Assembly (NCBI GenBank): GCA_963780895.1
Contig: CAWAEG010000009.1
Span: forward strand, 88,025 to 152,024
DNA length: 64,000 nucleotides
Reading direction: 5' to 3'
From: an uncultured Acidobacteriota bacterium
GTDB lineage: Bacteria > Acidobacteriota > Vicinamibacteria > Vicinamibacterales > SCN-69-37
Below, in pieces: positions 2,852 through 51,039 of the stretch (position 1 is the first letter of the stretch; each line of letters opens with the position of its first letter). The notes below the pieces were generated by a model. The model was not told the DNA's origin. It was given only the letters and a program-made list of their open reading frames with translations, and searched no databases. Position numbers and translations under genes: made by a program.

Positions 2852-5582
2852 TCAGGAATTCTGATCCGAAGACAGCCGCGTGACAAGGCCCTGCCGCCGG
2901 CGTTTCAGGAACAGGCCCTTGCGGGAGATGCCGAGCAGCTGCGCCGCATCGGCGACGCGGCCGCCGGACGATTCCATCGCGTGCTCGATGAACTTCTTCT
3001 CGAGCTCGGCCAGCGCCTGCACCAGCGGTTGATCGATGCGGACGGTGACGGCCGGGACGGTGACCGACGCGTGCGACGTCGGCCGTGAGTTCCAGGCCTC
3101 GGCGATTTCCGGCGCGAGATCTCCGGCGCCCAGCGTCTGTCCATCCGCGGCCAGCGCGACGACGCGCCTGATCTCGTTGGCGAGCTGCCGGATGTTGCCG
3201 GGCCAGTCGAAGAGCAAGAGCGCGGCGATGAAGTCGTCGCCGGGCCGCAGGCCGGTCCGCTGGCATTCGCGGCTGAATCGATCGAGAAACAGCGCGGCGA
3301 GCGCGGGAATTTCGTCTTTCCGTTCGCGAAGCGGCGGCAGGTTCAGGCGTGCGACCCCGACGCGATAGAAGAGGTCGCGCCGGAAGCGGCCCTGATCGAC
3401 GAGATCATCCAGGTCCGCGTTCGTCGCCGCGACGACGCGCACCGAGACGCGCTGGGGACGGACGTCGCCGACCGGGTGCACCTCACCGCTTTCGAGGAAG
3501 CGCAGGAGTTTGGGCTGGGTGGCCAGGTCGAGGTCGGCCAGCTCATCGAGAAAGACGGTGCCGCGCTCGGCCGCGCGGAGCACTCCGGGAAACGAGTCCA
3601 TCGCGCCGGTGAACGCGCCGCGGCGATGGCCGAACAGCTGGCTCTCCACGAGATCGCGTGGCATGGCGGAGCAGTTGAACGGCACGAAGGGCCCGCGCTT
3701 GACCTGGCTGTATTGATGGATCAGTCGCGCAATGATTTCCTTGCCCGTGCCGGTCTCGCCGGTGATGAGGACCGGCAGGTTCGTCGAGGCGAGCCGCACC
3801 GCGATGCGCAGGAGCTCGACCATCCGCGGCGATCGAAAGACGGTGTCGTCGCCGTCCTGCACGAGCGTCCGCGGCCACAGATTCTGCTCGTCGTCTTCGG
3901 ATTCCGTGTCCGCGGTCCGGTTGACGGCCGCCTGCGTCAGATCGGCGAGGCCCTTCAGCAGGGTGATTTCCTCGATCGTGTGCGCATCGCGGACATGGAT
4001 CGACACGCGCCGGTCGGATCCGTGAAGCCGGATCCGAAACACGCCGTTGGGATCGATGTCGGAGACGCTGGACGGCTCGGGCTGATATTCGCGCCCGGAC
4101 TCGCTCTGGATCTCGACCCGCGCGTTGAGCGACGTGCTCTGGAGGATCGCGGCGATCCGATGCGCCATGAGATCGATGGAGTGTCCGGCGCCGAGAATCG
4201 TCGCGACGTCGTTCAGCAGCAGTGCGGTGTCGGTCAGGTCGCGGCTCGGGCGCTCGACGGCGACGGTCGATTTCAGCGTACGGCTGATGTCGCGCCGATC
4301 GCGCTCGATCCAGGACTCGTGATAGCGGTGGCCGATGGCGCGGCACGCGGCGAGCGCGCGGTCGTAATGCACCTCGCCTTTGGCCGCGTCGCCGCGCAGG
4401 CTGAAGCAGAGCGCCTTGGATGCTTCGAGGACGATCAGCGGATCGACGGCGCCGCGCGGGCAGGAGCGGACGGCGGTCGCGAGAGCGGCATCCGCGCCGC
4501 CGTGTTTGCCCAGTCGTGCGAGCGCCCGCGCCTTCGCACAGAGCAACGAGGTGCGCACGGCTTTGAACTGCCGGCGTGCCAGCTCGGGGTCGGCCGCGTC
4601 GGCGACGGCCACCACCTCGGTCGAGTCTCCGATGGCTTCGAAGTAGGAGCACCGGGTGACGTCGATTGGCGAGGTCGTTCCAAGATCGAGCAGGCACCTT
4701 GTCGGCTGAAGCGGTGGACTGGCATTGCGCCAGCAGAGCGCGGCATTCTGCGGTGCGTCCCTGACAAAGTTCGACCAGCGCGAGGTTGTCGAGCGCGGCA
4801 AGCTTGACGTAAGTGGCTTGACCAGCGGATTTGAGAACAAAGTCGAGGTAATCGCGCGCCTTGGCGAAATCTCCGGAATGCGCCGCATTGAGCGCTAAGT
4901 TGGTTGCGGAACCCAGCTTGTAGGTCGAGAATCCCGCAGAATCGGCTCGCTCGAAACATCGCTCACCCATTTGCCTTGAGTGAACAAGGTTTCCCGTTAC
5001 CGAAGCCAGCGAGGCCTCGACCAGATCAACCGAACAAACCAATGCAGGATCTTGGACGTGACCGGAAAGCTGACGGGCAATTCCAAGGTGTCTGTGCGCA
5101 TCCGAGCACCGCCCTCGGCACCCCTCAAGACGCGCCACGGCCAAGTGAAGGCCGGCAAGTGAGCGCGCGTCCCCACTTAGGCATGCCAATTGACGCAGCC
5201 GAGTCAGCGCCGGAACCACTTCCTCCGGAGCCTGGAAATCCGTCTCTCTTACGAACAGGTTGAACGCGACGTTGAACTGAACGGCTGCGGCGCTGCGTCG
5301 GGACCCTTCAACCGCAAGCTTCAGTGTAGCGATTGAATCCACGGCGTTCCCCGAGTCAAACAACGCTTTTGCCCGAAGTACGAGCAACCGAACGGTTGAT
5401 TCGGCGTCGAGGTTCCAGCTGTCTGCTGATTCGCAATACTCAAGAGCGCTTTGTACTTGCCCCGCGCGATAAAGAGCTTCCGCACGTGACACATGCTCGT
5501 CGGGCGAACCAATGCTTTCGTGGTTCGGGAGGTGCAAATGGCGGGTGGTTCTCCGTCCCGCTCCGTCAGCTTTGTCAGCCAT
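2852..5582 (-). pseudogene. Sigma-54-dependent transcriptional activator (TPR-like N-terminus, central sensory region, AAA+ domain, Fis-type HTH). Frame break near 4690-4720.
   Basis: ORF 2852..4888 carries [22 protein letters not shown] and the C-terminal HTH AAQLLGISRKGL, but its first ~60 aa are Ser/Pro/Arg junk. The protein-like N-terminus (ATG 5582, ~290 aa of helical repeats) is in the frame of ORF 3543..5582. The codon phases of the two halves differ by one extra base. Confidence 0.8.
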
Positions 5583-5686
5583 CGTGTCCGGTCCCAGAAC
5601 GTCCGATTGGGATCCGGGACGATATCAAACCTTGACGTGCGCCGACAGCAAATGTCTGGGCAGGTCCAAAATGCGGCGGAAATCGT

Positions 5687-7622
5687 TCAGTGAATGCGGG
5701 ATCCAGGCCTCTCCGTTGGCCGGCTATCTTGGCGAGGTTCTTTTTGTCCTGAAGGACTTACAGCCGCGGCAAAGAGGGTCGCAGCACTCTCCAGCATTCG
5801 CTTGTGATCGTTATTGAAAGGGTCACTGCCGTAAGCGGTGATGACGCCAATCGGCGTCAACACAGGACCATTCAGAATCGGAACTGCCAGGGCGTACCGC
5901 AGAGGTACCGAGAAAGTTCGCGCGACTGGTCCCAATTCGAGTGCCGCGTTCGAATTCAACACGGCGTGTTTGTGAGCGTGTGCCCAGCCAGAAATCCGAT
6001 CGCCGATGGCGATCGTAAGCCCTTCGATGGTTGAGGTGCCGACGCCTGAACAGGCGATTACAGCGAGTTCATTCTTGTCATTCGGAACGAATAGGGTCAG
6101 AGTAGCAGCCGGGATAACTCTTCGAAGGTGTCTAAACAAAACGTCGGCCGCGTCCGTGACGGACGCCGTTAACGGCAGATCTCGACGAAGTTCGTTAAAC
6201 TCCCGTTCTTCAGCAGTAGTCGCAGCGATCACGTCGAGCTGAGACGGAGACAGAACCGGCGCTTCGGCGCCCGGAGTCACCAAGCTCTCCTCGGCGTCCA
6301 TCCGCTCAAGACGGTCAAGGATCCGTAGGAACTCATCCACGACCCACGGATCGTACCAAGTTCCCCGTCTCTCGCGCAGCACTTGTTCGGCATGCTGGCG
6401 AGTGTACCTTGGCCGGTATGGCCGGTCGGATGTGAGCGCATCATAACAATCGACTACGGAAAGAATTCGGGCACCGAGCGGGATGTCATGAGCCCGAAGT
6501 CCTTCAGGATATCCCGAGCCATTCCAGTTCTCATGATGATGCCGAACGATGGGTTCGACTGGATAAGGAAAATTGATTGACTTGAGAATGTCCGCGCCGA
6601 CTGCTGCATGCACCTTCATCCGCTCAAACTCGGCCGGAGTCAGCGGTCCTGGTTTATTTAGGATGTACCTCTGGGACCGCGAGCTTGCCCGTGTCATGTA
6701 GCAGTGCCGCCGCTCTCAGAGCGTCTAGCTGTTTTGGATCCTTAATCCCCAGGGCCTCCGCAAGCGTCATCGTGTAACGCTGTACGCGTCGAATGTGACC
6801 ATGAGTCACCTGGTCCTTGGCGTCGATGGCAAGCGCCAGAGCTTCGATAGTTGACAGGAACACTCTGTTCAGTTCGGCAACCTTCTGGCGTTCCGACTCG
6901 ACCCTTTTGTTTGACCATTGGTACGCCAAGAAAAGAAGAATCAATAAAGGAATGATCGCGGCAACGAAAATTGGGTCGACGGTCCGCGTGTTATATACGA
7001 GCAGAGCACCGATAGAACCGCCGGCGCCATAGTTCACAAGCAGGTCGCGGCAGTACTTCGTCCAGAGCTCATACGGACGCATCTGCCGCTGAAGAGCGAT
7101 CGCAATTGTCAAAAGCCAGCTAATCAGGAAGAAGTAGACGGTTGTGAAGATCGCGAGCTTGGCAACAAACCAGAAGTCCAGCTTCGTAACCGCTGGGTCG
7201 GTCTCAAACAGCGGCGTGATGCCTGCAATTTGGGCGGCGAGCCAGACAGCGACAGGACCAGCGGAGGCGTTAAAAATAATTTGTTTCCATTGAATGCGCC
7301 GCGAAAAACGGAGCCGCAGCGACATGAACAGCGCGTCAATCAGGATAAGGACCGTTCCACCGGCCGCACCGAAGAGAAGCGTGCCCGCAATGACGAACGT
7401 CTCGGAAATCGAAATGCTGATACTGACGTTGGGCAGCGTAACCGGGATCAGGCCACTGACAACCGTGAGCGCGACTAGCGAGAACCACTGAACGCGAAAG
7501 TCCGGGCCTTGATTGACGAGCTCAAACGTACTGAGAGAAACCACCACCGCGCCGACAGCGGCGACGACGGCCACATATGTGGAGAGAGTGCCTGAAGGAG
7601 GCGATCCTGGGGAATCCGACAT
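5687..7622 (-). pseudogene. 7TM-receptor / HD-GYP phosphodiesterase / GAF protein. Frame broken by one extra base at 6668.
   Basis: ORF 6654..7622 has about 7 hydrophobic helices followed by LLHDTGKLAVPE. ORF 5687..6697 continues in another frame with YILNKPGPLTPAEFERMKVH...HHHENWNGSGYPEGL (HD-GYP) and a C-terminal GAF-like region. Confidence 0.8.
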
Positions 7623-19002: not shown

Positions 19003-19050
19003 AGACCTCGGGTTTCGTTTTAGCCAGGACGAAAAATGAAACCCGATGTC
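19003..19050. repeat. ACCTCGGGTTTC hairpin family, copy 1.
   Basis: agacctcgggtttcgtttt - loop - aaaaatgaaacccgatgtc, in the divergent spacer between the NlpC/P60 and HNH genes. Confidence 0.8.
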
Positions 19051-26495: not shown

Positions 26496-27407
26496 ATGTC
26501 GGCTCAACGAACGCTTCGGCGGACGGTGCATTGCACTGGAATCGGCCTCCACTCGGGTCAACGGGTCAAAGTCTTCCTCAAGCCGGCTCCAGCCGATTAC
26601 GGCATTCGATTCCAACGTACGGACCTGGCAGGGACGGAGATTCCAGCCCACATCTCACATTTGGGTGCTCAACAGCACCTCCAGACCAGCCTGGTCTCGG
26701 GACACGCGGCCGTGGACACCGTCGAGCACCTCCTGGCGGCGCTTCGCAGCCTGGGCATCGACAACGCCTGCGTGGAGCTCGACCACTCGGAAGTGCCCAT
26801 CATGGACGGCAGCTCGGCGCCCTGGGTCTACCTGATTCAGGATGCCGGCGTGAAAGAACTCGCGTCGCCCCGCAAGTCGATCCAGGTGCTGCGCCAGGTG
26901 CACGTGCAGCAGGGCGACAAGCGGATCGCGGTGTACCCGTCGGACCGCTTCAAAATCAGCTACACGATCCGGTTCGACCACCCGCTCCTCCGCCACCAGC
27001 AGAAGACGCTCGACCTCGACGAACAGGTGTTCATCGACGAAATCGCACCGGCCCGGACGTTCGGCTTTTTGAAAGAAGTCGAGATGCTCCGCCAGCGTGG
27101 CATGGCGCTCGGCGGCTCGCTCGAGAACGCCATCGTGCTCGGCGAAACGGGCGTGCTGAACCCGCTGCGGTTCGAGGACGAGTTCGTGCGCCACAAGATC
27201 CTGGACGTCCTCGGCGACCTCGCCCTTGTCGGGCATCCGATTCTCGGACACCTCGTCGTGCACCGCGGCGGTCACGCGCTGCACACCGCCTTCGCGGCCG
27301 AGCTGCTTCGTCAGCGGGACGCGTGGCGCTTCGTCGAGATTCCGGACGGCGCCGATCTCTACGGCAGCCGGGTGCCCGCGCCTCTCGGCCAGCACGTCGC
27401 GCACTGA
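26496..27407 (+). CDS. lpxC: UDP-3-O-acyl-N-acetylglucosamine deacetylase.
   Basis: GIGLHSG, VEHLLAAL, EVPIMDGSS and HKILDVLGDLAL are characteristic LpxC motifs. Confidence 0.9.
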   Translation: MSAQRTLRRTVHCTGIGLHSGQRVKVFLKPAPADYGIRFQRTDLAGTEIPAHISHLGAQQHLQTSLVSGHAAVDTVEHLLAALRSLGIDNACVELDHSEVPIMDGSSAPWVYLIQDAGVKELASPRKSIQVLRQVHVQQGDKRIAVYPSDRFKISYTIRFDHPLLRHQQKTLDLDEQVFIDEIAPARTFGFLKEVEMLRQRGMALGGSLENAIVLGETGVLNPLRFEDEFVRHKILDVLGDLALVGHPILGHLVVHRGGHALHTAFAAELLRQRDAWRFVEIPDGADLYGSRVPAPLGQHVAH

Positions 27408-27448: not shown

Positions 27449-27464
27449 CCGCCCGCGCGGGCGG
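27449..27464. other. GC palindrome between the convergent genes lpxC and the 93-aa ORF.
   Basis: ccgcccgcgcgggcgg is a perfect palindrome abutting the minus-strand stop at 27465-27467. No T-run follows. Confidence 0.3.
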
Positions 27465-27746
27465 CTAATCTTCAGTGGCGCGATTGGCCTTTCGCACGAG
27501 GGCCACCAACCGATCGTTTTCGAACCGGTTGAAGCTCATGAAGAGGCTCTCCTTGAGGTAGGCCTGCAGCTCTTCCGGCGTCATCTGCGACACGATGTTC
27601 TGGATCTCGTGATCCACGTCTTCGAAGCCGTAGTCGAGCCCCTTCTGCCGCGCAAGGTCTCGCGAGATGATCTCGATGATCGCGAGGGCGTCCCCGTCGA
27701 GATCCACGCGGGTGCCCGCCGTGGTCGTGATGGTACGCATCGTCAT
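27465..27746 (-). CDS. 93-aa acidic hypothetical protein, last gene of the ECF sigma / STAS operon.
   Basis: The protein-like part starts MTMRTITTTAGTRVDLDGDALAIIEIISRDL. Its ATG (27746) overlaps the STAS stop in an ATGA junction. I recognise no motif. Confidence 0.6.
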   Translation of the reverse strand: MTMRTITTTAGTRVDLDGDALAIIEIISRDLARQKGLDYGFEDVDHEIQNIVSQMTPEELQAYLKESLFMSFNRFENDRLVALVRKANRATED

Positions 27747-28084
27747 CCTCCGAAGCTCGCGAGCGCGGACGCCTGGTCGGCATGCACCTCGAGGAAGTTG
27801 TGCGCGCCCGTCATCTGCAACATCGTCTCGACGCGCTTCTGCACGCCCGTGAGCTTGAGCGACCCGCCCGCCGCCTGCGCCTGGCGGAACAGATCCATGA
27901 GGCACCCGATCGTCGCGCTGTCCACGTAGCTGACCGGCGTGAGATCGACCAGGATCTTCTTCTCGCCCGCGCCGATGAGGTTCGTGGCCGCGGTCGCGAA
28001 ATCGGCCAGGATGGGATAGGTCAGCCGGGTTTCCTTCACCAGCAGCAGGACGACGCCGTCGATGTGAGAGGTCGTGACGTTCAT
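27743..28084 (-). CDS. STAS-domain protein (anti-sigma-factor antagonist, SpoIIAA/RsbV-like).
   Basis: 113 aa with LVDLTPVSYVDSATIGCLMDLFRQAQAAGGSLKLTGV. The start overlaps the sigma gene stop by 4 nt. Confidence 0.8.
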   Translation of the reverse strand: MNVTTSHIDGVVLLLVKETRLTYPILADFATAATNLIGAGEKKILVDLTPVSYVDSATIGCLMDLFRQAQAAGGSLKLTGVQKRVETMLQMTGAHNFLEVHADQASALASFGG

Positions 28085-28704
28085 TCGGTTCCTCCGCGCG
28101 AAGCCGGCTTCACCGCCGGTCCGCGAGACTGAAGACGACGCAACTGCCGGGCGAGCTCGAGCCGCCCGCGATTGATCCGCGACTTGACCGTTCCCTCCGG
28201 CAGGTCGAGCTTGTCGGCGATCTCCTGATACGAGAACTCCTGCAGGTCGCGAAGCACCACCGCCTCCCGAAGCGCTTCGGGCAGCTCGGCCAGCGCCTGC
28301 CGGATGAGATGCCGCAAATCGAGCTGCTCCAGCTCGCCGTGCGGACCCCGGTCGCGCGACACCGGCATCAGATCGGCGGCGTCCACGTCCCGGGCCATCG
28401 TCTCACGTTCCTTGCGGACGCTGCGGTAGTGGTCGATGCAGAGGTTGCGGCTGATGCTGATCAGCCAGGTCTGGAAGTTGGCGCGCCGATCGAACGTGTG
28501 GAGCGCCCGGAAAATCTTGAGAAAAATGTCCTGGGTGAGGTCTTCGGCCTCGTCGTGACGGCCGACGAACTTGTAGGCGAGGTTGAAGACCTTGCGCCAG
28601 TGCTGGCGGACGATCTGCTCCCAGGCCTCCTGATCGCCCGAGAGACACCGCGCAATCAATTCGTCGGTGACGGTAGCCGGCGCAACATTGGGATCGGTGG
28701 ACAT
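28081..28704 (-). CDS. ECF-type RNA polymerase sigma-70 family factor.
   Basis: Region 2 is DLTQDIFLKIFRALHTFDRRANFQTWLISISRNLCIDHYRS and region 4 is SYQEIADKLDLPEGTVKSRINRGR. ATG 28704 is preferred over TTG 28737. Confidence 0.85.
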   Translation of the reverse strand: MSTDPNVAPATVTDELIARCLSGDQEAWEQIVRQHWRKVFNLAYKFVGRHDEAEDLTQDIFLKIFRALHTFDRRANFQTWLISISRNLCIDHYRSVRKERETMARDVDAADLMPVSRDRGPHGELEQLDLRHLIRQALAELPEALREAVVLRDLQEFSYQEIADKLDLPEGTVKSRINRGRLELARQLRRLQSRGPAVKPASRGGTE

Positions 28705-28736
28705 CGACGAGATCGGCGGGTCCGCGCATGATAACA

Positions 28737-28793
28737 AAGACCTCGGGTTTCGTTTTTTTGAGCCTGACGACCAAAAACGAAACCCGAGGTCTT
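28737..28793. repeat. ACCTCGGGTTTC hairpin family, copy 2 (perfect 21-bp stem).
   Basis: aagacctcgggtttcgttttt - ttgagcctgacgacc - aaaaacgaaacccgaggtctt, in the divergent sigma/lysA spacer. Confidence 0.85.
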
Positions 28794-28810: not shown

Positions 28811-30052
28811 ATGCCGTTTCGCCACGTACAGGGAACGCTCACTTGCGATGATGTCCCGCTCGACCAGATCGCGCGCGCAACGGGCACGCCCGTACACGTC
28901 TACAGCGCGGCGACGATCGTCGATCGCCATCGGGCGCTGGACGCCGCGGTGGACGCGCACCCGCACCGGCTGCACTACGCCATCAAAGCGAACTCCACCC
29001 TCGGCATCGTCCGGCTGATGCGCGAGCTCGGCGCGTCAGCCGACGCGAACTCCGGCGGCGAAATCGAAGTCGCCCTGCGCGCCGGCTTCAAGCCCGCCGA
29101 CATCGTGTTCACCGGCGTGGGCAAGACCGGCGCGGAGCTCGACCGCGCCATAGGCCTCCACCTCGGCGCAATCAACGTCGAGTCGTCCGGCGAGATGGAC
29201 CGGATCGCGGCCCGCGCGCAGACACAGAACACACGCGTGCGAACCGCCGTCCGCATCAACCCGGATGTGGACGCCGGCAGCCACCCGCACATCTCCACCG
29301 GCCGCCTCGACACCAAGTTCGGCATGACCGTCGAGGACGCGACGACCTTGATCCGAAAGATGTCGCGACACCCTCACCTGCAGGTCGTGGGCCTCCACGT
29401 CCACGTCGGCTCGCAGGTGACGACGACGGAGCCGCTTGCGCGGGCGTCGGCGACGCTGGCGGACCTCGCCCGCGCCCTCGCCGCCGAAGGCATCCACCTC
29501 GAACACCTCGATCTCGGCGGCGGCCTTGGCCTCGCCTACGAGCCCGGACAGAAGATCCTCTCCGTCGAGGAGTACGCCGAAGCCATCCTCCCGCCAATCC
29601 GCGCCGCGGGCCTGACCCTGCTTCTCGAACCCGGCCGATGGATCGTCGGACCCGCCGGCGTCCTGCTCGCCACGGTCGTGGACATCAAACCCAGACCGGC
29701 AGGCGGGTCGTTCGTCATCGTGGACGCCGGGCTGACCGATCTGTTGCGGCCCGCGCTCTACGGCGCGTGGCACGGCATCGAGCCCGTGACGCCCCGATCC
29801 GGTCCTCCCCTCGAGGCCGACATCGTCGGGCCGGTGTGCGAGACCTCGGACACGCTGGGCCGCGCACGCACACTGCCGCCGGTCTGCGTGGGGGATCTCG
29901 TCGCGATTCGCGATACCGGCGCCTATGGCGCGGTGATGGCCTCCAACTACAATCGGCGCCCGATGGCGAGCGAAGTGCTCGTCCAACACCAGACCTTCCA
30001 CACCATCCGTCGTCGTCAAACCATCGACGAGATGCTGCAGTGGGACGAGTGA
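28811..30052 (+). CDS. lysA: Diaminopimelate decarboxylase.
   Basis: HYAIKANS (PLP lysine), DLGGGLGLAY and GPVCETSDTL. ATG at 28811. Confidence 0.9.
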   Translation: MPFRHVQGTLTCDDVPLDQIARATGTPVHVYSAATIVDRHRALDAAVDAHPHRLHYAIKANSTLGIVRLMRELGASADANSGGEIEVALRAGFKPADIVFTGVGKTGAELDRAIGLHLGAINVESSGEMDRIAARAQTQNTRVRTAVRINPDVDAGSHPHISTGRLDTKFGMTVEDATTLIRKMSRHPHLQVVGLHVHVGSQVTTTEPLARASATLADLARALAAEGIHLEHLDLGGGLGLAYEPGQKILSVEEYAEAILPPIRAAGLTLLLEPGRWIVGPAGVLLATVVDIKPRPAGGSFVIVDAGLTDLLRPALYGAWHGIEPVTPRSGPPLEADIVGPVCETSDTLGRARTLPPVCVGDLVAIRDTGAYGAVMASNYNRRPMASEVLVQHQTFHTIRRRQTIDEMLQWDE

Positions 30053-34353: not shown

Positions 34354-34410
34354 CACCTCGGGTTTCCTTTTCCTGGTGGTGCTCTTCGGAGGAAAAGGAA
34401 ACCCGAGGTG
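34354..34410. repeat. ACCTCGGGTTTC hairpin family, copy 3.
   Basis: cacctcgggtttcctttt - loop - aaaaggaaacccgaggtg, upstream of rplU. A second small hairpin, ctcagttc-N8-gaactgag, follows at 34414-34437. Confidence 0.8.
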
Positions 34411-43904: not shown

Positions 43905-45324
43905 TTAGATCGAGTTCGTCGGGACCTGTTCCGGCACGACCTGCCGGCGGCTCCGCGGAATCTCGATGCTCAGGATCTTGATCTTGTAGTTCATGACGCG
44001 CGGGCTGATGCCCAGGAGCTCGGCCGCGTCCTTCTGCACCCAGTTGGACATGCGGAGCGCCTCGACGACCGCCTGGCGCTCGATCTCCTCGAGCGGGATG
44101 CCCGTCGGTGGAATCTTGACCGCCAGCGCGCGATCGCCGCCCGCCGACGCCGGCGCCGACTGTTCGCCGATCTGGAGGTCGGCCATGCCGACCAGCCCGC
44201 CGTCGGCCAGGAGCACCGCGCGCTCGATCACGTTCTCGAGCTCACGGATGTTGCCGGGCCAGTTGTGGCGCATCAGCACCTTGAGCGCGTCGCCATGCAC
44301 GCCTTCGATCTTCTTCTTGAGCTCGGCGGCGAACTTCTTCACGAAGAAGTCGGCGAGCGCCCCGATGTCGTCCTTGCGGTCCCGCAGCGGCGGCGTCTCG
44401 ACCGAGACGACGTTCAGACGGTAGAACGAGATCTTCACGGAAGCGGCCTTCCTGGACCATCGTCGTCAGATTGCGGTTGGTCGCCGCGATGATCCGGACG
44501 TCCACGCGCAGCGTGCGCGTGCCGCCCAGCCGCTCGAACTCGTGCTCCTGGAGCACGCGCAGGATCTTCGCCTGCGTGCTCGCGCTCATGTCGCCGATCT
44601 CGTCGAGGAACAGCGTCCCGCCGTCGGCCTGCTCGAACCGGCCGATGCGCTGTTTGTCGGCGCTCGTGAACGCGCCCTTCTCGTGACCGAAGAGCTCGGA
44701 CTCGAGCAGGTTTTCCTGGAGCGCCGCACAGTTGACCTTGACGAACGCGCGGTTCGCCCGGTGCGAGTTGTGGTGGATGGCGCCGGCGATGAGCTCCTTG
44801 CCCGTGCCCGTTTCTCCTTTGATCAGCACAGTCGAGTTGCTGCGCGCCACCTTCTTCACGATCGTGAGCACTTGCTGCAACGCGCCGCTCGCGCCGACGA
44901 TGCGGTCGAAGTCGTAGATGTCCTGCTGCTCGTGCCGGAGGTACTCGACCTGGTACTTGAGGTGCCGCAGCTCGATCGCCTTCTCGATCTTGAGCTCCAT
45001 CTCCTCGATCTCGAACGGCTTCTGGACGAAGTCGAACGCGCCGATCTTCATCGCCTCGACCGCGGTGTGGATGGACCCGAACGCCGTCATCAGGATGACG
45101 GCCGCGCTCGGCTGGATCGATCGCGTCGTGCGCAGCACGTCCATGCCATCGGCGCCGCCCATCCGCAGGTCGGTCAGGACCACGTCGAACTGGCTGTCCT
45201 GCAGCCGCTCGATAGCCACCGTGCCGTTCGGGGCCTCTTCCACGTCATGGCCGGCATTGGCCAGCGCGCGGACGAGGCCCTTGCGCAGCGAATCGTGATC
45301 GTCCACTACCAGAATGCGTCCCAT
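43905..45324 (-). pseudogene. NtrC-family sigma-54-dependent response regulator. Frame broken by one extra base at ~44428.
   Basis: REC ([11 protein letters not shown]...[11 protein letters not shown]), AAA+ ([14 protein letters not shown]) and ...GRFREDL are in ORF 44242..45324. [31 protein letters not shown] and the HTH AAELLGISPRVMNYKI are in ORF 43905..44438. Confidence 0.85.
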
Positions 45325-49614: not shown

Positions 49615-50223
49615 ATGACCCCGACGGATGAGGAACTCGTTGCCCGCGCCTCCGCGGGCGACCTGGAAAGCTTCAACCAGCTCGTTACACGCTGGGAGAG
49701 GCCGATCTATGCTCTGGCGTACCGGACGCTGGGTCGTGAAGAAGACGCTCGCGATGTCGTGCAGGAAGCCTTCCTCCGGGCCTACCGCGGCCTTCGCGGG
49801 TTCAAGGGACAGGCGAAGTTCTCGTCATGGCTGTATCGGATCACGCTGAACCTCTGCCGCGACTGGATCCGGCGCGAGCGGCGTGCGCCGCTCGTTCAGG
49901 TGCCGGAAGGCACCGATCCGGTGGAACTGGCCGATGAGCGGGTCGCGCCGACTGAATCGGTCGAGGAGCTCGTCGCACGACGCGAGCTGTCAGAGGCGGT
50001 CGCGCTGGCGATGGCCGAGCTGCCGGAGGAACAGCGCACGGCGATCATGTTGAAGGAGTACCACGGCCTGACGTTTCAGGAGATTGCGGACATGCTCGAC
50101 TGTCCGCTCAGCACCGTGAAGACGCGTCTCTATCAGGGGCTCTCTGTTCTGCGTCGCCGACTGGAGCGGAGGCAGGCGGAGGCGGCGAGCCTGAGACGCG
50201 CGACGTGGGAAAGCAGTACATGA
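49615..50223 (+). CDS. ECF-type sigma-70 family factor.
   Basis: Region 2 is DVVQEAFLRAYRGLRGFKGQAKFSSWLYRITLNLCRDW and region 4 is TFQEIADMLDCPLSTVKTRLYQG. Confidence 0.85.
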   Translation: MTPTDEELVARASAGDLESFNQLVTRWERPIYALAYRTLGREEDARDVVQEAFLRAYRGLRGFKGQAKFSSWLYRITLNLCRDWIRRERRAPLVQVPEGTDPVELADERVAPTESVEELVARRELSEAVALAMAELPEEQRTAIMLKEYHGLTFQEIADMLDCPLSTVKTRLYQGLSVLRRRLERRQAEAASLRRATWESST

Positions 50224-50342
50224 AACTTAGAACTTCAAACTTCAAACTTCGAACTTCGAACGACAGACCCGGGACGTCGAAATCGGCGTTCATGTGACCG
50301 GGTTCGAAAGTTCGAAGTTTGACGTTCGGAGTTCGAAGTTTC
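50222..50342. repeat. ~120-nt heptamer-word hairpin (gaacttc / gaagttc arms) between the sigma and anti-sigma genes.
   Basis: Left arm gaaacttagaacttcaaacttcaaacttcgaacttcgaac pairs with right arm gttcgaaagttcgaagtttgacgttcggagttcgaagtttc. The inner stem continues (acccgg/ccgggt). Confidence 0.8.
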
Positions 50343-50352
50343 CGTGAGGTAG

Positions 50353-51039
50353 ATGCCAGCTATGTGCGATGAACGCGAACGACTCATTGGGTACGTCTAC
50401 GACGACTGCGATCCTGCCGAGCGTCGGGCGATCGAGGAACACCTCGAGGACTGCGGGACGTGCCGGGCGGAGATCAGCGGGCTGCGGAGCGTGCGCCAGG
50501 ATCTGCTGGCGTGGGACGTGCCGCCGCACGAGGCGATCTGGCGTCCGCTTCCGGCAGCGCGAGTCTTGCCGTGGTATCGCCAGGTGCCCGTATGGGCGAT
50601 GGCGGCCGCGGCCGGCGTGATGTTCCTCGTCGGCGCCGCTGGCGGCGTCGTCACCCACGCCCTCGTGCCACATACGCAGCCGACGACGACGGTCGCCAAC
50701 GGTTCCCCTGAGCAGATCATTCCGGCTGGGGTCACGGAGAGCCGGCTCTCGGAAGTCGAGCAGCGGATGGTCGACATGATGCGCGCCGAGCTGGGCAAGC
50801 GTCAGGTGGTCGCGAACGGACCGGTCCCCGCTCGGGTCGTCCCGGCCTCGATGGGGCCGGATCTCCTGTCTGCGCGGATGAATGAAATCGTCGGCGCGAG
50901 TGAACAGCGTCAGTGGGAGATCGTGCGAGACGTTCAGAACGAAATTGACAGGTCGTTCCGAGCGTTGAAGCAGGAAGTCAACGGTCTGAAGGCTGCTGTT
51001 CAGGAAGTCGTCCTGATGCAGAGCGGCGGCGGCCGATGA
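50353..51039 (+). CDS. Anti-sigma factor (zf-HC2 type, single-pass membrane).
   Basis: N-terminal H-x3-C-x2-C context EEHLEDCGTCRAEISGL and one TM helix (VWAMAAAAGVMFLVGAAGGVV). Confidence 0.7.
   Translation: MPAMCDERERLIGYVYDDCDPAERRAIEEHLEDCGTCRAEISGLRSVRQDLLAWDVPPHEAIWRPLPAARVLPWYRQVPVWAMAAAAGVMFLVGAAGGVVTHALVPHTQPTTTVANGSPEQIIPAGVTESRLSEVEQRMVDMMRAELGKRQVVANGPVPARVVPASMGPDLLSARMNEIVGASEQRQWEIVRDVQNEIDRSFRALKQEVNGLKAAVQEVVLMQSGGGR

Follow-up and report, generated by a model that had tools for sequence, protein, structure and literature searches.

A conserved pair of STAS and small-protein genes coupled to an ECF sigma factor gene in Vicinamibacteria

We analysed a compact three-gene operon from an uncultured Acidobacteriota bacterium (Vicinamibacteria; Vicinamibacterales; SCN-69-37; GenBank assembly GCA_963780895.1). 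The DNA under study, hereafter the window, is a 64,000-nucleotide (nt) stretch of contig CAWAEG010000009.1 (positions 88,025 to 152,024 of the forward strand) with a G+C content of ~66%. On its minus strand, from 28704 down to 27465, three closely packed genes encode a sigma factor of the extracytoplasmic function (ECF) type, a STAS protein and a small acidic protein. They are flanked by convergent lpxC (26496-27407) and divergent lysA (~28811-30052), with uvrA lying past lpxC and tmk past lysA. A first-pass annotation, made from the letters of the window, had reported three chained minus-strand genes; the open reading frames (ORFs) are present, and the domains of the sigma and STAS proteins were confirmed by Pfam and NCBIfam.

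The sigma gene (28081-28704, minus strand) encodes 207 amino acids (aa) from an ATG at 28704, and its ATGTCC start is conserved in relatives. The protein matched Sigma70_r2 (9e-21), Sigma70_r4_2 (1e-18) and Sigma70_ECF (2e-8) in Pfam and scored 118 bits against TIGR02937 (sigma70-ECF; cutoff 42.9). It contains regions 2 and 4 only, as is the group-4 type, and its closest solved relatives are SigW, Mycobacterium tuberculosis SigE and RpoE. The second gene (27743-28084, minus strand) encodes a 113-aa protein consisting of a STAS domain only, of the SpoIIAA/RsbV type, with matches to PF01740 (2e-13) and to the anti-sigma antagonist model TIGR00377 (1e-13). It aligns to its relatives SpoIIAA, RsbV and TM1442 in the PDB across the phospho-acceptor DS motif, here VDSATIG, and the serine of this motif is retained in all intact copies among 77 loci, sigma-linked or sigma-less. 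The protein is not of the MlaB type, scoring 26 bits against NF033618 (cutoff 90), and no Mla genes lie near the operon. Public records name the neighbours 'ECF subfamily sigma' and 'anti-sigma B factor antagonist', and the small protein 'hypothetical protein'.

The junctions between these genes are tight. The sigma stop and the STAS start overlap in an ATGA (28081-28084, minus strand) that is kept in 55 of 61 related loci and points to translational coupling; a Shine-Dalgarno GGAGG for the STAS gene, conserved in relatives, sits within the 3' end of the sigma gene (28091-28095, minus strand), 6 nt ahead of the ATG in the overlap. A second ATGA, at 27743-27746, had been read together with the first as chaining all three genes, with a 93-aa product encoded from the ATG at 27746. 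Both strings are present, and the second is not the conserved start of the small gene. Homologues of the small protein are mostly 91 aa long and begin with MRT, and the STAS stop codon is followed, without overlap, by the start of the small gene 2-10 nt further on in 60 of 61 related loci; the ATG at 27740 is therefore almost certainly the true start (gene 27465-27740, minus strand, 91 aa), and the ATGA at 27743-27746 appears to be an accident peculiar to the window sequence. With this start, the STAS and small genes of the window are still tightly packed, with a 2-nt gap between them, and a Shine-Dalgarno GGAGG for the small gene at 27747-27751 (minus strand), made of the final two glycine codons of the STAS gene in a conserved FGG-stop context, lies 6 nt ahead of the ATG.

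Gene order was then compared across relatives. A survey in which each species was represented by a single genome gave 65 loci. Almost all of them bear the label Acidobacteriota or Vicinamibacterales/Vicinamibacteria, and a few metagenome-assembled genomes (MAGs) carry other labels. The sigma-STAS-small order was present in all species genomes wherever the contig reached far enough. Most of the 65 genomes also share the wider synteny, with lysA diverging from the operon and lpxC and uvrA converging on it. A metagenome scan contributed 80 further loci, and hidden Markov models (HMMs) built from our own alignments were applied to all loci; 50 of the 52 metagenome loci with room for the triad contained it. 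The arrangement is far beyond chance. Whether relatives share the three-gene order had been named in the first-pass annotation as decisive for its proposal of an ECF-linked module, and the order is strongly conserved, in the 65 species genomes and in 120 sigma-linked loci overall. The triad occurs in the same neighbourhood together with a fourth gene in distant sigma-linked subfamilies (L066, L067 and L076). This is a 453-aa radical SAM/SPASM enzyme directly after the small gene in L066 (6368-7729) and L067 (6267-7628), and a DUF1573 protein in L076 (5303-5728); neither gene is found in the window, and both may be sigma targets or lineage-specific additions.

Of the genes in the triad, the STAS and small genes are the ones that never part. 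In every one of the 146 loci with room for it, a STAS gene is the immediate upstream neighbour of the small gene, mostly with junctions from a small overlap to ~14 nt. A sigma gene precedes the pair in 120 of these loci, is absent in 11, and has an undetermined status in the other 15. The invariant unit is therefore the STAS/small pair, and linkage to sigma is the majority arrangement, coherent within lineages and non-universal. Sigma-linked and sigma-less loci share no subfamily of the small protein, five subfamilies being sigma-linked and four sigma-less. The 11 sigma-less loci contain the pair with no sigma gene within ~5 kb, and in nine sigma-less contexts of still more distant members the STAS gene still stands immediately upstream of the small gene. 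Neighbours in sigma-less loci include genes for a GGDEF protein, a cation-efflux (CDF) protein, an SSF transporter, DnaB, an HDOD-HD-HATPase-REC hybrid and Crp/CsgG genes. Four of these pairs (L069, 4401-5633; L072, 5589-8546; L075, 5470-8415; L077, 5629-8556) adjoin cyclic di-GMP-type or sensor genes, either with GGDEF directly upstream or with a same-strand HDOD-HD-HATPase-REC hybrid downstream, an arrangement that recalls HsbA-HsbD in Pseudomonas. At another sigma-less locus (L068, ~5210-5650), the STAS gene is preceded by a 440-bp gap of tandem-like repeats that give the same peptide-like translation in all three frames.

The small protein has an isoelectric point (pI) of 4.7, with 17 D+E against 11 K+R, and no Cys; it is thus acidic, as first described, and 91 aa long where 93 aa had been given. 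A single-sequence search returned 772 homologues, the best of them from Vicinamibacterales. Profile searches found 224 clusters (50% identity) at E <= 1e-3 among 1.84 billion cluster representatives and, among the best 8,000 candidates from a 5.8-billion-sequence set, at least 7,899 significant matches; a profile built from the most distant members gave 3,515 further matches. Among the listed matches with an organism name, all were from Acidobacteriota except one MAG labelled Chlorobiales, and most matches come from soil metagenomes, where Vicinamibacteria are prominent. Family members are ~88-120 aa long, are conserved along their whole length and carry the signature LDGD...E..Q...YLxESLF...(F/Y)EN, in which LDGD closes an N-terminal hairpin and E45, Q52 and Y61-L-x-E-S-L-F...(F/Y)-E74-N75 come after it. 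The window protein is the query and founder of the family, and on its strand a STAS gene directly precedes it. The median pI of the family is 5.0. Lys/Arg-rich, probably disordered N- or C-terminal tails were seen in several subfamilies (homologues P0250, P0237, P0192, P0171 and L110); such tails account for the pI above 6 in ~30% of members and hint at an association with nucleic acid, RNA polymerase or membrane.

An AlphaFold2 model of the small protein from 137 diverse sequences was confident (pLDDT 93.8, pTM 0.73), an earlier one from 15 sequences (pLDDT 68) having been too weak, and predicts a beta-hairpin (3-13) and three helices, two of them spanning 18-33 and 39-51 and the third, a long one, 55-90. 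No known family was recognized. There was no significant match in Pfam or NCBIfam (hmmscan, E <= 1), FlgM included, or in PHROGs; a profile search of PDB sequences gave vinculin and Vipp1 as best hits at E ~0.07, which is noise; and the model had no Foldseek match in the PDB (best E 2.6) or BFVD. By hhalign, the family aligned to the zf-HC2 anti-sigma factor encoded elsewhere in the window with 1% probability and to the sigma factor with 0.5%, showing no sigma mimicry. The first-pass annotation had seen no motif in this protein and had allowed that it might turn out to belong to a known anti-sigma family; the searches by hmmscan, PDB sequence, Foldseek and hhalign gave no sign of such membership. 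The source labels of some homologues ('phage gp29-like', 'shikimate kinase', 'M32 carboxypeptidase') were unsupported by any search, and longer cluster representatives that looked like Rosetta-stone fusions were frameshifted or chimeric calls. On this evidence, we regard the small protein as the product of a real gene and the founder of a large unannotated Acidobacteriota family.

The operon and its surroundings were searched for the usual components of sigma factor control, with Pfam run on every likely gene picked across the 64 kb. No HATPase_c_2/RsbW-type kinase and no SpoIIE/PP2C phosphatase was found in the operon, in the Pfam-scanned window genes or in 15 annotated related contexts. No anti-sigma domain was found in the operon (STAS and small protein; hmmscan, E <= 1) or in the same 15 contexts, and neither the STAS nor the small protein contains a Response_reg or PhyR_sigma-like domain by Pfam. 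The sole zf-HC2 (ZAS-type) anti-sigma among the scanned window genes (50353-51039, plus strand) lies 21 kb away and follows a second ECF sigma gene (49615-50223, plus strand), forming a canonical pair that serves as an internal contrast. The early remark that the genes come with no kinase or anti-sigma thus holds true of the operon and of the Pfam-scanned window genes. The gene for a STAS kinase may lie in another part of the genome, Anabaena All4160 being a demonstrated case (bioRxiv 10.64898/2026.04.08.717354), and the statement therefore applies to the neighbourhood only.

The DNA upstream of the sigma gene was examined for a promoter. A candidate extended -10 element, TGTTATCAT (28728-28736, minus strand), lies 23 nt before the sigma ATG. 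Conservation extends to relatives: most of 49 related loci have a TATGAT/TATCAT hexamer 13-31 nt before the sigma start, usually in the form TGnTATGAT. The surrounding DNA is roughly 66% G+C, and TGTTATCAT is probably the extended -10 promoter element of the operon. A generic sigma-70 scan made no call at TGTTATCAT because no -35 element is present. An autoregulatory ECF promoter was considered and not seen upstream of the sigma gene; the conserved sigma-A-like extended -10 stands there instead. A housekeeping-type, non-autoregulatory promoter fits control of the sigma factor at the protein level.

Purifying selection is strong on each of the three proteins, whose mean distances are similar to those of UvrA and LpxC. 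The invariant residues of the small protein do not differ between sigma-linked and sigma-less lineages (G9, L14, D15, G16, D17, E23, D41, E45, Q52, Y61, F67, E74 and N75), so that the small protein looks like a dedicated STAS partner and not like an ECF-specific anti-sigma. In matched sets of loci, group-specific conserved positions in the STAS protein numbered 15 in the sigma-linked set versus 4 in the sigma-less set, compared to 5 versus 5 in the small protein. The 15 sigma-linked STAS positions cluster in DSATIGCLMD and KRVETML.MTG, which we take to be the canonical partner-binding face of SpoIIAA in the SpoIIAA-SpoIIAB complex.

Covariation between the three proteins was estimated from correlations of their distance matrices, which, being built on non-independent pairwise distances, are given without p-values. 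Across 74 triads, the correlation was 0.93-0.94 for sigma-STAS (0.81 in the FMS subgroup and 0.92 in the FLN subgroup), 0.69-0.73 for sigma-small (0.60 and 0.73) and 0.62-0.69 for STAS-small (0.57 and 0.66). After the distances of LpxC, LysA and UvrA were removed (29 loci), the partial correlations were 0.46, 0.03 and 0.13, respectively. Split-half reliabilities were high (sigma 0.94, STAS 0.93, small protein 0.89), and noise in the short protein therefore does not account for the gap. The small protein co-varies less with either partner and is thus not obviously the hub expected of a classical anti-sigma. As evidence on the wiring of the module, we treat this covariation as suggestive only.

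The safest statement is that the STAS and small proteins are an obligate pair, which most lineages produce in a set ratio to an RpoE/SigW-like ECF sigma without any other adjacent regulator. Going further, we consider it probable that the pair controls the sigma factor post-translationally. The wiring that we favour, at a probability of roughly 0.4, is centred on the STAS protein: an obligate two-protein switch that is coupled into the sigma operon and acts after translation. We infer its physical interactions, the direction of control and the signal as follows. The housekeeping-type extended -10 promoter would drive the operon, so that its three products appear jointly and at set ratios. The STAS/small pair would keep the sigma factor inactive, as a cytoplasmic two-part stand-in for the missing anti-sigma, and a change of state in the STAS protein would set sigma free. 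This change could be triggered by phosphorylation of the serine in VDSATIG by a kinase/phosphatase encoded elsewhere, or else by a signal sensed by the small protein via D15, D17, E23, D41, E45, Q52, Y61, E74 and N75. The STAS protein would sit next to sigma and contact it by the canonical alpha2/alpha3 face, and the small protein would be its universal partner, serving as input or modulator.

Several points weigh against this STAS-centred wiring. First, direct binding of a sigma factor by a STAS domain has, to our knowledge, no precedent; the known partners of STAS domains are GHKL kinases, FlgM, diguanylate cyclases, ATPases and transporters. Second, the 11 pair-only loci indicate that an adjacent sigma is not required, and the primary target could be something else. 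Third, STAS-small is the weakest of the correlations despite the two being obligate neighbours, and a mirror-tree comparison may be uninformative for a protein of 91 aa. Lastly, a kinase or anti-sigma elsewhere in the genome is possible, as 64 kb was surveyed.

The foremost alternative, which was also the idea put forward in the first-pass annotation, is the classical wiring, in which the small protein would be a kinase-less anti-sigma and the unphosphorylated STAS protein would bind it, freeing sigma. HsbA-FlgM (PMC6482189) sets a precedent for a STAS protein that binds a small anti-sigma lacking kinase activity, the order of STAS followed by partner parallels rsbV-rsbW, and the conserved STAS serine would suit such a switch. 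The small protein is moreover the only operon product without an assigned role and, being acidic (pI 4.7), helical after the hairpin and cytoplasmic, resembles soluble anti-sigmas. However, an anti-sigma hub should co-vary with both partners, and the small protein co-varies least with both. Its invariant residues are shared with sigma-less lineages, the sigma-specific patch being limited to L19, L35, F39 and E40; it is unlike any known anti-sigma by HMM, hhalign and Foldseek; and anti-sigmas are seldom encoded apart from their sigma, yet 11 loci have the pair without one. We regard the classical wiring as somewhat less likely and weakly prefer the STAS-centred wiring, because of the small-protein core shared by all lineages, the extra constraint on the STAS protein, the covariation, and the position of the STAS gene, which is that of an anti-sigma gene. 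The early proposal of a new ECF-linked STAS module is accordingly a fair reading of the locus, and the part that allowed for the small protein as an ECF-specific anti-sigma fits less well with the covariation and the sigma-independent core.

It is improbable, in our judgement, that the STAS/small pair has a job unrelated to sigma, for example with cyclic di-GMP enzymes, a sensor kinase or another universal target, and is merely co-transcribed with the sigma gene. That the pair occurs alone or beside GGDEF, HDOD-HD-HATPase-REC, CDF or Crp/CsgG genes in 11 loci speaks for such a job, as does the independence of the conserved small-protein residues from sigma linkage, and non-sigma outputs of STAS proteins are documented in HsbA-HsbD (PMC6482189) and All4160 (bioRxiv 10.64898/2026.04.08.717354). 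It would leave the ECF sigma without any adjacent regulator, however, and does not sit well with the ATGA coupling of sigma and STAS kept across five subfamilies and 120 loci or with sigma-STAS covariation above the housekeeping background.

Less probable still is ordinary partner switching, with an RsbW-type kinase/anti-sigma and a PP2C phosphatase encoded elsewhere and the small protein as an accessory. The STAS protein is canonical and SpoIIAA-like with its serine retained, distant STAS kinases are known (bioRxiv 10.64898/2026.04.08.717354), and our evidence spans 64 kb of the genome. No such kinase was found near related loci (annotated contexts) or among the scanned window genes, though, and the known targets of RsbW-type anti-sigmas are group-3 sigmas, RpoS and sigma-66, with no RpoE-like ECF sigma among them; the strict pairing of STAS and small genes would also be left unexplained. 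Finally, that the small ORF is no real gene, or encodes the precursor of a ribosomally synthesized and post-translationally modified peptide for a radical SAM/SPASM maturase, as the enzyme gene directly after it in one subfamily (L066, L067) might suggest, is effectively ruled out by the lack of a maturase in the window or most lineages, the absence of Cys, conservation throughout the protein where a leader and a variable core would be expected, a confident fold (pLDDT 94) and thousands of homologues under purifying selection.

Compared to known systems, the module resembles the Bacillus RsbV-RsbW-SigB and SpoIIAA-SpoIIAB-SigF switches in having a single-domain STAS protein with the serine, co-operonic with the sigma and a presumed partner. 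It differs in that no GHKL kinase/anti-sigma or PP2C is nearby, the sigma is an ECF sigma (group 4) and not of group 3, the gene order is sigma-STAS-partner, and the partner is a 91-aa protein of an unannotated family. Since the kinase and phosphatase were tested for and not found nearby, we place the module outside the RsbV/RsbW/RsbU family. The HsbA-FlgM-FliA system of Pseudomonas aeruginosa (PMC6482189) is alike in that the STAS partner is small and lacks kinase activity; HsbA also acts on the diguanylate cyclase HsbD, and some sigma-less pairs here adjoin GGDEF/HD-type genes. Unlike the present locus, HsbA is phosphorylated by the adjacently encoded HsbR, and FlgM, which acts on a group-3 sigma, is largely disordered and unrelated to the small protein.

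Like the ECF sigma pairs SigW-RsiW and RpoE-RseA, and the pair at 49615-51039 in the window, the operon has an RpoE/SigW-like sigma, and the gene directly downstream of it, coupled by ATGA, occupies the usual anti-sigma position. In contrast to these pairs, the downstream gene here encodes a STAS protein and not an ASDI/zf-HC2 protein, neither downstream protein matches an anti-sigma model, and both are cytoplasmic without a membrane span; because no anti-sigma domain is present, the module is not a pair of an ECF sigma and a class I anti-sigma. The EcfG-NepR-PhyR system of Alphaproteobacteria (ECF15; PMC8999054) likewise places an ECF sigma under a cytoplasmic partner switch. There, however, a response regulator that carries a sigma-like domain acts as antagonist, and the module described here is not such a system because it has no receiver domain and no sigma mimicry. 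The partner switchers of Bordetella act on type III secretion and are not known to serve as the anti-sigma of BtrS. The btrS locus (PMC8256260, PMC7498569) is similar in that it combines the ECF sigma BtrS with a STAS protein, BtrV, that has the conserved serine, and differs in having the full set, including the RsbW-like kinase BtrW and the PP2C phosphatase BtrU.

No description of the module was found in the literature searched. The main text of the 2021 ECF reclassification (PMC7826278) names no STAS-linked ECF group, and no STAS-controlled ECF sigma appears in a 2022 review of non-canonical mechanisms (PMC8999054). ECF270, reported for 'Acidobacteria bacterium SCN 69-37', was considered as a prior description and rejected: it is a ZAS-regulated group and therefore a different sigma. 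The module would work like partner switching and looks like a conserved, previously undescribed form of STAS-based sigma control with a new protein family at its centre.

ECF sigmas are the largest alternative sigma family, and their regulators define bacterial stress sensing. The module is conserved at a near-housekeeping level and with fixed synteny in a whole class of abundant, poorly studied soil bacteria, and it includes a protein family of thousands of members without annotation. A tentative extension of our reading, which we hold with some doubt, is that the ~90-aa protein represents a new sigma-regulatory class, forming with the STAS protein a switch that governs a near-housekeeping ECF sigma across Vicinamibacteria with no kinase alongside; this may include the first direct STAS-sigma contact, with the small protein as the signal-reading subunit via its acidic/polar cluster. 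Should the proposed function prove right, the locus would define a new class of anti-sigma or adaptor, bring ECF sigmas within the range of STAS partner switching where no kinase gene lies next to them, and give a role to a phylum-wide gene that so far has none assigned.

Two palindromes border the operon. The sigma/lysA intergenic region contains, at the place expected for a -35 element, a perfectly palindromic copy (28739-28791, no strand assigned) of an element that is in general a near-perfect palindrome, GACCTCGGGTTTCG-T5...A5-CGAAACCCGAGGTC, which occurs in three intergenic copies in the window (19004-19050, 28739-28791 and 34354-34410) compared to 0.14 matches expected by chance. The sigma-side copy has a folding energy of -42 kcal/mol (z = -6.8), and the element resembles a repetitive extragenic palindromic (REP) element or a bidirectional terminator; an Rfam search gave no match. 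The palindrome at 28739-28791 was rejected as an operator, as it is a repeated element and is not conserved at that position in relatives; it does not belong to the conserved module. At the other end, a GC-rich palindrome read from the sequence, CCGCCCGCGCGGGCGG (27449-27464, no strand assigned), lies directly past the small-gene stop codon, between the small gene and convergent lpxC. It has no T-run and was not called by a terminator scan, and it is a possible shared terminator of the two genes.

Elsewhere in the window, two genes are seemingly broken up into ORFs that overlap. An NtrC-type regulator (43905-45324, minus strand) has REC and Sigma54_activat in 44242-45324 and AAA_lid and HTH_8 in 43905-44438, and an HD-GYP/GAF protein (5687-7622, minus strand) has its HD domain shared between 6654-7622 and 5687-6697. 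Both are read as frameshifts, arising from pseudogenes or assembly errors.

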